From Escherichia coli (lineage in GTDB: Bacteria; Pseudomonadota; Gammaproteobacteria; Enterobacterales; Enterobacteriaceae), in assembly GCF_003334815.1 (NCBI RefSeq), contig NZ_QOWO01000006.1: 64,000 nt of DNA; one strand, 5' to 3'. Positions 7,935 to 8,390 of this stretch are shown here, piece after piece. The translations under genes and the position numbers were made by a program. The notes under the pieces were generated by a model, which saw only the letters and a list, made by a program, of their open reading frames with translations, was not told the DNA's origin and searched no databases. Every line of letters starts with the position of its first letter. Within the stretch, counting starts at the first letter, position 1.

Positions 7935-8230
7935 TCGGGCTTACTTGCTGCTCTGAAGGTTGTTAACCACCAGTAAATTGTCGCCGGAGAGACTCCGGTT
8001 ATTATTTACCTCGGTTAACAGCGCACCAGAAACAATAAGTACGATACAAAAGCACCGTATCTTCATTGTGCGGTCCATGCGAAGACCGCATCACGACAGC
8101 ACCACTGGCGATATTGCCGCGATAGCAAGCGCTGTGAAACACCTGCATTTACGGCCACGGAACATCCTTTCCTAAAGCCAGCGCCCGTTTGCGAGACGGC
8201 GGAAAGGGCCGCAGTGGATAATACACTAAC
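7914..8230 (-). ncRNA. Candidate ~315-nt structured minus-strand transcript (size and position fit the ryfA sRNA) carrying small ORFs
   Basis: Minus-strand -10 TATTAT (plus 8237-8242) with weak -35; several internal hairpins; ends at hairpin ATGCCGCCC-AAA-GGGCGGCAT (7914-7934) followed by a U-run on the minus strand; contains a 24-codon ORF with AGGAAAGG SD and a 41-45 codon hydrophobic ORF. Confidence 0.35.
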
Positions 8231-8289
8231 AGAACAATAATAACTCTCTTTTGCTTGACAAAAAGAGAGTTACTGGCGAGTATTGTCTC

Positions 8290-8390
8290 CGCTGAGACGC
8301 GCTTGCATTACTACGGTAATACAACCTGCTGGAAAGGCCGCGAACCGGACCAGCAACAAAAAACCGCCTGATTTTGGCGGTTTTTTGTTT
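8290..8390 (+). ncRNA. Candidate ~100-nt small RNA (module 1) at the ryfA locus; possible antitoxin-like or sibling sRNA
   Basis: TTGACA (8255-8260), 17-bp spacer, GAGTAT (8278-8283, has conserved A2/T6), then AAAAAACCGCC-TGATTTT-GGCGGTTTTTTG intrinsic terminator (8358-8393); no transcript data, prediction only. Confidence 0.35.

Follow-up and report, generated by a model that had tools for sequence, protein, structure and literature searches.

The locus studied here raises the question of whether a short direct-repeat box, present both at the 5' end of a minus-strand transcript and in the body of divergent plus-strand RNAs, is the site through which these RNAs pair. The window, that is the whole 64,000-nucleotide stretch of Escherichia coli DNA that was analysed, contains at this place the sseB–sseA intergenic region, which is the already described timPR type I toxin–antitoxin locus (ryfA/timP and TimR). 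The RF00126 (ryfA) model matches over its full length (model positions 1–296 of 296; 314.9 bits for a gathering score of 80) from window position 8212 to 7909, the region is matched in all 5426 complete E. coli genomes, and the K-12 annotation puts timR, ryfA and timP at the corresponding positions. The ryfA RNA (K-12 b4440; 7909–8212, minus strand) is the 304-nt timP toxin mRNA. Its terminator is at 7914–7934, and it carries the ORF (7941–8066, minus strand) of the 41-amino-acid toxic inner-membrane protein TimP, annotated as timP in RefSeq E. coli and scoring 86.8 bits against NCBIfam NF040796 toxic_TimP (cut-off 45). A hairpin that sequesters the Shine–Dalgarno sequence, SL4 (GCGGUCUUCGCAUGGACCGC), lies immediately 5' of the timP AUG. 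TimP toxicity and translational repression by TimR were demonstrated in Salmonella; in an APEC study, the toxic peptide from E. coli ryfA was left 'to be determined'. The preliminary description was right in proposing that a divergently encoded, trans-acting type I antitoxin RNA acts on the 5' UTR of a minus-strand toxin mRNA, as this is the published timPR system.

The 5' UTR of timP also contains a 24-codon ORF (8091–8165, minus strand, taken from the ORF list), which had been singled out as the ORF of interest. This assignment did not hold: we rejected this ORF as the toxin, since it has no NCBIfam match and the toxin ORF is timP, read from 8066 to 7941. It is a non-conserved upstream ORF, whose AUG is missing from the Yersinia and Rahnella homologs, and its Salmonella counterpart, of 8 codons compared with 24 in this E. 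coli, is dispensable, as mutating its start codon had no effect on timP translation (PMC11228461). Upstream of ryfA, a divergent promoter region (8241–8272) contains a 12-bp perfect inverted repeat around TTGACA (8255–8260), with a second copy at 8565–8594. The plus-strand RNA that adjoins ryfA is a TimR paralog without K-12 annotation, recognized from its promoter and terminator (copy 1, about 8291–8388). TimR itself (K-12 b4811; copy 2, 8612–8711, plus strand) is identified by the K-12 annotation and by its 19-bp pairing with SL2, and its −35 TTGACA, 17-nt spacer and −10 GAGTAT, as read from the sequence, place the +1 at the annotated start, 8612. The IS128 RNA (8344–8552, minus strand; Rfam RF00125, 262.1 bits for a gathering score of 80, and direct repeat D1) is a truncated ryfA remnant that retains the promoter and the first ~17 nt of ryfA, including the box at 8523–8534, joined to AT-rich DNA; it has its terminator in common with TimR copy 1, and the 3' ends of the two RNAs are perfectly antisense. 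Two larger direct repeats enclose the boxes (91 nt at 90% identity and 64 nt at 84%), and because the boxes sit within these repeats, the existence of two modules, already put forward, is borne out. Rfam matches to ohsC (28.8 for a gathering score of 50), OrzO-P (25.8 for 60) and AgrB (29.6 for 40) were rejected as below gathering scores and driven by the terminator, as were, for the same reasons, weak RNAI and rimP matches; with ohsC and OrzO-P below their gathering scores, the locus is therefore outside those families.

The box reads GGAAAGGGCCGC at 8201–8212, GGAAAGGCCGCG at 8331–8342 and 8657–8668, and GGAAAGGGCCGG at 8523–8534. The preliminary description gave these positions and sequences correctly, except that the last base of the copy at 8523–8534 is G (it ends in GG) and not C. 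The pattern GGAAAGG(N0–1)CCGC has three matches in the 64-kb window, all at this locus, compared with 0.10 ± 0.33 in shuffled sequences, and three matches were reached in 0 of 100 shuffles. The first copy lies 36–47 nt 5' of the ATG (8165) of the 24-codon ORF, in agreement with what had been noted. The predicted duplex of about 11 bp with a 1-nt bulge is found (7 bp, bulge, 4 bp) when transcription of the mRNA begins at 8212, as in Rfam and the K-12 annotation, but is reduced to 7 + 2 bp when it begins at 8210, the window equivalent of the Salmonella +1.

The box had been taken for the pairing site; the known site is instead formed by the 5' end of TimR and SL2 (8130–8153 with 8612–8633). In Salmonella, the TimR 5' end pairs with SL2 over 18 nt, as established with compensatory mutants and structure probing (PMC7667032, PMC11228461). 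Here, the canonical TimR-binding site in SL2 (ryfA nt 60–83; 8130–8153, minus strand) was recovered as the best local duplex with TimR copy 2, of which nt 1–22 (8612–8633) form 19 bp, with a hybridisation energy of −35.9 and a net energy of −14.2 kcal/mol after opening costs. TimR copy 1 pairs more weakly with the same SL2 (hybridisation −25.3, net −9.9 kcal/mol). These duplexes were computed in sequence windows with opening energies, full-length RNAduplex having given uninformative 90–170-nt 'duplexes' with unlimited interior loops. Among 30 ryfA and 32 TimR sequences, the TimR–SL2 energy has a mean of −41.8 kcal/mol for same-locus pairs versus −27.3 kcal/mol for all pairs, and at 23 of the 30 loci the same-locus TimR ranks third or better among the 32, TimR copy 2 ranking first of 32 for the ryfA studied here. 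The TimR 5' end pairs and co-evolves with SL2 across genera, and the cognate antitoxin of this ryfA is the distal TimR copy 2. The adjacent copy 1 was rejected for this role because of its weaker SL2 pairing and of the first rank of copy 2; it has the architecture of an antitoxin with a non-cognate specificity, and its 5' end (GCUGAGACGCGCUUGC) is identical to that of the TimR of E. coli 442/2 and of E. whittamii, whose ryfA SL2 matches it. The variable TimR 5' end pairs with the loop and 5' side of SL2 in the timP 5' UTR and represses TimP translation; in the published Salmonella work, SL2 pairing destabilises the SL1–SL3 pseudoknot needed for ribosome loading. We consider it likely that the boxes belong to this known system and that the required interaction lies elsewhere, the box–box complementarity being real and conserved, not needed to account for repression and not sufficient for binding.

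What, then, are the boxes for? In the mRNA, the box (GCGGCCCUUUCC, ryfA nt 1–12; 8201–8212, minus strand) is the extreme 5' end. In the SL1 basal stem, its nt 6–12 (8201–8207) provide the 5' strand, and the 3' strand, its intramolecular partner, is GGAAAGG, ryfA nt 41–47 (8166–8172, minus strand). The Rfam consensus structure pairs nt 7–12 with nt 41–46, and over 28 sequences pairing in the SL1 basal stem reaches 96.9%, with a single covarying pair (C-G to U-A). In Salmonella, the M7 mutation, which changes CCUUUCC to GGAGAGG, abolishes translation and M7' restores it, and timP translation depends on an intact SL1 basal stem (PMC11228461). The mRNA box has a structural role in the SL1 basal helix. 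In the sRNA, the box is the stem–loop junction and 5' loop half of a constant hairpin that is common to all TimR homologs. In the fold of copy 1 this hairpin (8328–8354, plus strand) has a GCUGG/CCAGC stem and a 17-nt loop, AAAGGCCGCGAACCGGA, the box at 8331–8342 spanning the stem–loop junction; in copy 2 (8654–8680, plus strand; box 8657–8668) the stem is GCUGG/CUAGC and the loop AAAGGCCGCGAACCAGA. The hairpin stem shows 99.3% pairing, including 2 compensatory pairs, and the column identity of the hairpin, 0.97–0.98, is the highest anywhere in TimR. Because the mRNA box forms the SL1 helix and the sRNA box is part of a constant hairpin, each box is probably maintained by an intramolecular or other constant role of its own.

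The two halves of the TimR loop differ in conservation: from Escherichia as far as Yersinia and Rahnella the 5' half (AAAGGCCGC) reaches ~97%, the 3' half 0.82. It is the 5' half, the better conserved, that is complementary to the 5' end of the mRNA, and its conservation goes beyond what the intramolecular structure explains. One possible reading, which we hold tentatively, is that the loop is a platform for another binder, either an RNA chaperone or RNase (ProQ, Hfq, RNase E) or a trans target mRNA that is itself conserved, and that it resembles the antisense of the mRNA 5' end by coincidence. The hairpin is invariant while the antitoxin specificity region is hypervariable, and the box nucleotides G15 and C16 do not vary either, although their proposed partners, ryfA nt 1–2, do and are probably outside the Salmonella transcript. 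ProQ is reported, in the title of PMC10664665, to bind RyfA. We found no direct evidence for any protein or second target, and a literature search found no paper on TimR with Hfq or ProQ.

The behaviour of the two boxes in homologous loci bears directly on whether they pair with each other. A word-indexed protein search with TimP gave matches only in Escherichia and Shigella; a contig scan with an SL4 pattern gave at least 18 real ryfA loci, the matches listed being mostly chance ones from GC-rich genomes, with none from Salmonella; and a TimP profile search combined with exact-protein look-ups supplied the Salmonella-type loci and those that diverge further. A search of viral contigs with the TimP alignment gave no match, and a metagenome scan added three further loci only, with boxes unchanged in all. 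The conservation expected of the boxes is observed, since complementarity is kept in 28 of 28 sequences, with 91.2% of 308 cells paired. It is specific to the register, slid registers pairing 23–64% of cells, and the core pairs are kept at 96–100%. The expected covariation was not seen: 0 of 11 pairs are changed on both sides, a figure that 500 of 500 shuffles also reach, in a test that has low power because both boxes are nearly invariant. Box energies show no cognate preference (−15.8 kcal/mol for same-locus pairs versus −16.2 kcal/mol for all pairs), and the divergent boxes of loci L129 and L131 and of Y. pekkanenii copy a are not compensated, the canonical pairing being strong in L129 and L131.

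These observations weigh on the proposal of a second, constant contact, in which the box of the TimR loop would pair with the timP 5' end and invade the SL1 basal stem, either once SL2 is paired or at the same time; we regard this proposal as unlikely. Such a contact would help to collapse SL1 and the SL1–SL3 pseudoknot and would explain a translation block far from the ribosome-binding site; it would also offer an explanation for the step from SL2 binding to pseudoknot destabilisation, which the timPR authors call unresolved. The requirement of translation for an intact SL1 basal stem (M7) speaks in its favour. Besides the conserved, register-specific complementarity and the fact that the complementary loop half is the conserved half, the SL2 and box contacts are collinear and antiparallel, and both helices are present in the minimum-energy structure of the E. 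coli ryfA × TimR copy 2 cofold (start 8212; ddG −23.0). The stand-alone box duplex has a net energy of −8.6 kcal/mol when the mRNA starts at 8212, the K-12 5' end. Against this, compensatory changes are missing and cognate and non-cognate energies are the same, and the energetics become marginal or unfavourable when both intramolecular helices must open: with an mRNA that starts at the Salmonella-equivalent +1, a box hybridisation of about −15 kcal/mol has to pay an extra opening cost of +11 to +20 kcal/mol. The box helix is also missing from the minimum-energy structures of the Salmonella and copy 1 cofolds, the Salmonella TimR hairpin staying closed. Probing of 5'-labelled RNA resolves the first ~10 nt poorly. 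In the published probing experiments, adding TimR caused no reported change in SL1 and no increased cleavage at G39–45 (PMC11228461). TimR-M6, in which the 5' end is mutated and the box intact, gives no rescue and is described as binding-incompetent (PMC7667032); the box is not sufficient for binding, since this mutant fails with an intact box. Neither a second TimR contact nor the box is described in the Salmonella timPR papers (PMC7667032, PMC11228461, PMC13000454). A contact of the box–box type is at most a helper contact.

The second-contact proposal also suffers from the existence of an equally conserved alternative target in SL4. The TimR loop could pair with the SL4 5' flank GCGGUCUU (ryfA ~nt 124–131, site 4) and compete with the site 2–site 4 interaction that frees the Shine–Dalgarno sequence, site 2 GGCCGU (nt 57–62) being complementary, as read from the sequence, to site 4 GCGGUC (nt 124–129). 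Mean energies of the loop with 5' UTR windows 120–123 are −15.6 to −16.2 kcal/mol, next to −16.1 kcal/mol with the 5' end, and at least 31 of 33 pairs reach −12 kcal/mol or better, a conservation of the flank that is partly built in because 18 loci were selected with a pattern containing GCGGTC. We nevertheless judge this target very improbable: SL4 is unusually stable and costly to open (ED 15.5 kcal/mol), sequestration of its 5' flank would expose rather than hide the Shine–Dalgarno sequence, and the complementarity is lost in L131.

Returning to our preferred reading, in which the boxes have separate roles and box–box pairing probably has no essential function, the complementarity itself might act as a weak accessory contact, or might be left over from the antisense 5' UTR duplication that gave timR. 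In the latter case timR would derive from a duplicated plus-strand copy of the ryfA 5' UTR that then suffered an internal deletion, the box and the SL2 block being the two surviving collinear pieces. This origin is conceivable, if somewhat unlikely as the account of the direct repeat. Both blocks are same-strand direct repeats, and TimR copy 2 is collinear with the antisense of ryfA nt 1–88, with an alignment score of 57.1 compared with 36.3 ± 4.0 for shuffles (z = 5.3), a score that is, however, dominated by the two blocks themselves and that falls to z = 2.4 for copy 1. Such an origin would leave the maintenance of the box unexplained, because a relic under no selection would have lost the ~97% identity that is seen between Escherichia and Yersinia.

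The timPR locus of Salmonella enterica serovar Typhimurium is the closest system for comparison (PMC7667032, PMC11228461, PMC13000454). It has the same RF00126 mRNA with SL1–SL4, a TimP ORF, the same sseB–sseA context, and the same divergent ~100-nt sRNA whose 5' end pairs with SL2; our locus L137 reproduces every published timPR nucleotide position. The published Salmonella oligonucleotides carry the same boxes, at the timP +1 (GGCCCUUUCC) and in TimR (...CUGGAAAGGCCGCG). In contrast with Salmonella, there are two TimR paralogs in this E. coli locus, along with a second, truncated ryfA (IS128), and the cognate TimR is the distal one. In Shigella dysenteriae, the RyfA1/RyfB1 and RyfA2/RyfB2 pairs are tandem ryfA–ryfB (that is, timP–timR) modules at the same locus, and the 'variable region' of SL2 determines specificity through a handful of nucleotides (PMC5333039). 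Both S. dysenteriae ryfA copies are complete, whereas in this E. coli only the first ~17 nt of the second copy survive, and the sRNA copies do not match their neighbours. The timPR authors themselves compare timPR with tisB-istR1, zor-orz, shoB-ohsC and dinQ-agrB (PMC7667032). Like timPR, the tisB-istR1, zorO-orzO, shoB-ohsC and dinQ-agrB systems combine a small membrane toxin with a divergent, trans-encoded sRNA, and systems of the tisB-istR1 type likewise rely on a short complementary stretch (~18–20 nt) that lies in the toxin 5' UTR at a long distance from the ribosome-binding site. Their toxin mRNAs need nucleolytic processing, whereas timP becomes active through a structural switch, with no processing, and their antitoxins block a standby site or trigger RNase III cleavage. 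In IS10 RNA-OUT/RNA-IN and in the kissing-loop pair CopA/CopT, a loop contact nucleates a fully complementary duplex. The putative box pairing, if real, would resemble these systems in that an antisense loop would contact the extreme 5' end of its target; unlike in them, the box is separate from the validated duplex and the target 5' end is partly base-paired.

In conclusion, the preliminary description re-derived the published timPR logic from raw sequence and assigned the pairing to the wrong element. The strongest form of the second-contact proposal, in which the TimR loop AAAGGCCGC would be a universal docking site on the timP 5' end and SL1 basal stem and would make a two-point clamp with the hypervariable SL2 helix, is less likely again. 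If true, such a clamp would explain how the SL1–SL3 pseudoknot is dissolved from SL2 and why TimR prefers one mRNA conformation, and would give non-cognate paralogs of TimR, copy 1 among them, a weak interaction with timP mRNAs of every kind. A useful result that remains is that the most conserved part of TimR is its hairpin loop, the conserved half of which is complementary to the 5' end of the mRNA, where a helix required for toxin translation is formed. The TimR specificity types, shuffled among E. coli strains, bear on the diversification of chromosomal type I systems.

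The locus has been published as timPR, a type I toxin-antitoxin system in which TimR is a divergently encoded sRNA that represses TimP translation, and the divergent, trans-acting antitoxin logic proposed in the preliminary description matches what has been published for it. The flanking ORFs are pepB, sseB, sseA and a yfhM-like gene. On the minus strand, Rfam places ryfA (RF00126), the timP toxin mRNA, at 8212->7909 (314.9 bits, gathering score 80) and IS128 (RF00125) at 8552->8344 (262.1 bits), and the K-12 annotations map to the same place (ryfA b4440, 8212->7909; timP CDS b4812, 8066->7941; timR b4811, 8612-8711). 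The 41-amino-acid ORF matches NCBIfam toxic_TimP (86.8 bits, cut-off 45); a 24-codon ORF proposed earlier has no NCBIfam match. The window locus falls outside the ohsC, OrzO-P and AgrB RNA families, as all three scored below the Rfam gathering score. An 831-nt region is matched in 5426 of the 5426 complete E. coli genomes of the collection, in 1516 of them at ≥99% identity. The window carries every sequence-level mark of timPR, and the finding is therefore already known at the system level. Downstream of pepB, 7000-7082 contains a REP-like inverted repeat with sub-threshold Rfam matches to naRNA4 and ES036.

A 12-base box is found in the mRNA (8201-8212, GGAAAGGGCCGC), in two TimR copies (8331-8342 and 8657-8668, both GGAAAGGCCGCG) and at 8523-8534 (GGAAAGGGCCGG); all four positions are as first described, but the last base of the 8523-8534 copy is not the one originally written. 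GGAAAGG(N0-1)CCGC has three matches in the 64-kb window, every one at the timPR locus, against 0.10 expected under dinucleotide-preserving shuffling (0/100 shuffles with three). Two long direct repeats, spaced 322-326 nt apart, contain the boxes (90% identity over 91 nt, 84% over 64 nt), and the two modules recognized earlier are therefore real.

The box had been taken as the site of sRNA–mRNA pairing, whereas the established pairing lies elsewhere, between the TimR 5' end and SL2, one of the four stem-loops (SL1-SL4) of the ryfA 5' UTR. Compensatory mutants (M6) proved in vivo that, in Salmonella, 18 nt at the 5' end of TimR pair with the timP 5' UTR (PMC7667032), and structure probing locates the TimR site in SL2, with G76 protected (PMC11228461); the same pairing logic was predicted earlier for Shigella dysenteriae RyfB1/RyfA1 (PMC5333039). 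The best local interaction in the window is this canonical one, between ryfA nt 60-83 (8130-8153) and nt 1-22 (8612-8633) of copy 2, the distal, annotated TimR (hybridisation -35.9 kcal/mol, -14.2 net of opening energies). The SL2 site co-evolves with TimR across 30 ryfA loci from Escherichia, Citrobacter, Salmonella-type, Superficieibacter, Yersinia, Rahnella and mobile-element contexts, a sample that leans towards sequences resembling E. coli ryfA: when these loci are compared with 32 TimR, the same-locus mean is -41.8 kcal/mol vs -27.3 over all combinations, and at 23 of the 30 loci the TimR of that locus is among the three best of the 32.

At least four TimR specificity types occur in E. 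coli strains (a, GCUGAGACGCGCUUGC; b, GCUGUGAAGCACCUGC; c, GACGAGAUACACUUGC; d, ACUGUGGGGUGCCUGC; window copies and loci L123-L126), and the matching SL2 is not always beside its cognate TimR. The ryfA, adjacent TimR and distal TimR are of types b, a and b in the window (8291-8388 adjacent, 8612-8711 distal), c, b and c in GPEC874, and a, a and c in WP4-W18. Judged by these types, copy 1, the unannotated TimR adjoining ryfA in the window, is an 'orphan' antitoxin. In many E. coli genomes there is only one timPR module. A truncated paralog of ryfA, IS128 (8344-8552, minus strand), retains a -10 of the ryfA type (GCGTATTAT) and about 17 nt from the start of the transcript (CCGGCCCUUUCCGCCGU), joined to AT-rich sequence. 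IS128 runs into the bidirectional terminator of copy 1, which makes its last ~45 nt fully antisense to the 3' end of copy 1.

The reverse complement of the mRNA box, GCGGCCCUUUCC, is ryfA nt 1-12, of which nt 7-12 pair with GGAAAG at nt 41-46 to form the base of SL1 in the Rfam consensus structure. Across a 28-sequence alignment, 96.9% of this stem is paired and one position covaries (U-A replacing C-G in three sequences). In Salmonella, the timP transcript begins with GGCCCUUUCCGCCG (supplementary oligonucleotides, PMC11228461), and the Salmonella-type locus L137 numbered from this +1 gives all published coordinates (AUG 53-55, UAG 77-79, G33/C34, C57/C58/G59, G76, G81). The Salmonella M7 mutation is exactly CCUUUCC to GGAGAGG and M7' is the reciprocal change at nt 39-45; translation was 'dramatically reduced' by M7 and restored in M7+M7' (PMC11228461). 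Together with the SL1 stem pairing, these results demonstrate an intramolecular function of the mRNA box, sufficient alone to explain its conservation. The Salmonella-equivalent +1 is 8210, and the last two bases of the box (8211-8212) would be untranscribed if E. coli, whose ryfA start is taken from annotation and homology, shares the Salmonella start. A consensus scan proposes a minus-strand promoter at 8222-8261 (TTGTCA, 16 nt, TATTGT), with a start near 8227; the conserved -10 GTGTATTAT (TACAAT in Yersinia), 6 nt upstream of the Rfam ryfA start, and the Salmonella +1 argue for a start at 8210-8212 instead.

In both modules, a perfect 12-bp inverted repeat, TAACTCTCTTTT / AAAAGAGAGTTA, flanks TTGACA of the timR promoter (8241-8272, 8565-8594); Salmonella-type loci (L137, L127, L129) instead have a palindrome, CTCCCTTAAAAGGGAG, between the timR -35 and -10, twice in L129. 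These elements look like possible operator sites for a putative regulator of timR.

In all TimR homologs, a hypervariable pairing region at the 5' end is followed by a small variable hairpin, a constant hairpin and a terminator. The constant hairpin has a GCUGG/CCAGC stem and a 17-nt loop (AAAGGCCGCGAACCGGA in E. coli), and the sRNA box runs from the final two G's of the stem through the 5' half of the loop. Pairing of the stem is 99.3%, and compensatory changes have arisen in it twice independently, as GUUGG/CCAAC in L129 and as GCUGA/UCAGC in L131. Mean column identity is 0.97-0.98 in this stem, 0.97 in the loop 5' half, 0.82 in the loop 3' half, 0.84 in the terminator and 0.70 in the 5' pairing region; conservation within TimR is thus highest in the box hairpin. 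For the loop, this conservation has no intramolecular explanation.

A genuine auxiliary contact, in which the TimR loop box would bind the mRNA 5' end and help to unzip SL1, seems unlikely to us. Box complementarity is conserved in related loci, as 91.2% of cells pair (11 proposed pairs, 28 sequences) vs 23-64% with the partner slid 1-3 columns, a control that favours the tested register because it was derived from these same sequences. The box helix is collinear and antiparallel with the canonical helix, both are present in the minimum-energy structure when ryfA with the K-12 5' end is cofolded with copy 2, and such a contact would fit the published authors' open question of how TimR binding destabilises the SL1-SL3 pseudoknot. 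However, covariation between the boxes, the check proposed earlier, is absent (0/11 pairs compensated in 28 sequences), in a test of low power because the boxes barely vary, shuffles doing equally well for the same reason. There is no cognate preference (-15.8 same-locus vs -16.2 all pairs), and at the three loci with diverged boxes the mRNA 5' end is uncompensated and the duplex is weaker (L129, GGGUAGGCCGC, -8.9; L131, GAAAGGACCGC, -13.1; Yersinia pekkanenii copy a, GGAAUGGCUGC, -11.4); canonical pairing is still strong in L129 (-48.3) and L131 (-42.1). Both box halves must also first exit intramolecular helices, each supported by covariation. Duplex prediction is divided: with the K-12 5' end the box helix alone is predicted to be favourable (hybridisation -22.0, net -8.6), but with a Salmonella-type +1 it has only 7 + 2 bp (about -15 kcal/mol), and the extra opening cost after the canonical helix (+9.1 and +10.3 in Salmonella, +9.8 and +6.2 for E. 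coli copy 2) brings the net to about zero, in estimates that ignore pseudoknots, Mg2+, proteins and co-transcriptional folding. The TimR hairpin stays closed in the cofold minimum-energy structures for Salmonella and copy 1.

Published experiments also speak against this contact. TimR-M6, with its box intact, neither rescued cells nor bound, and was termed 'binding-incompetent' (PMC7667032); the box is therefore not sufficient. On TimR addition, changes were reported only in SL2, plus minor ones at 57-58, 142-144 and about 165, and none at G39-45, where exposure is expected if the SL1 base unzips (PMC11228461). The TimR loop matches another conserved element, on the 5' side of SL4, the Shine-Dalgarno-sequestering hairpin, equally well (AAGGCCGC with GCGGUCUU): mean energies are -15.6 to -16.2 for windows starting at 120-123 vs -16.1 for the mRNA 5' end, a comparison with some circularity, since the pattern used to retrieve 18 of the loci includes GCGGTC; the match of the box to the 5' end is thus not unique. 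This target, ryfA nt ~124-131 (window ~8082-8089) and its homologs, is the published 'site 4', and TimR GGCCG is identical to the published 'site 2'. Neither the box nor a second contact by TimR was found described in the searchable literature. Binding of a protein or another RNA is a candidate function of the TimR loop, compatible both with an auxiliary contact and with box complementarity having no essential role.

Modules away from sseB-sseA were seen in L129, which adjoins Hha-like and UmuC-like genes, in L131/L132, whose surroundings are phage-like (Rha/ORF6N genes, matches to C4 antisense and IsrK RNAs), and in L049-L051; Y. pekkanenii has at least three timPR copies. It is in such mobile or extra copies that the diverged boxes occur. 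In Citrobacter amalonaticus (L117), 8030-8340 is rearranged, a reverse-complement TimR (terminator, box hairpin, 5' region) being joined at SL2 to the 3' part of ryfA, with SL1 and both promoters gone.

The specific pairing of the boxes is an unverified hypothesis, on which the comparative evidence is mostly negative, and their complementarity probably has no essential role. Repression would operate as published for timPR: the 5' end of the cognate sRNA (8612-8711) would pair with SL2, so that neither the SL1-SL3 pseudoknot forms nor sites 2 and 4 open the Shine-Dalgarno hairpin. The repeated box marks two elements of constant structure, the basal stem of SL1 and the constant hairpin of TimR.
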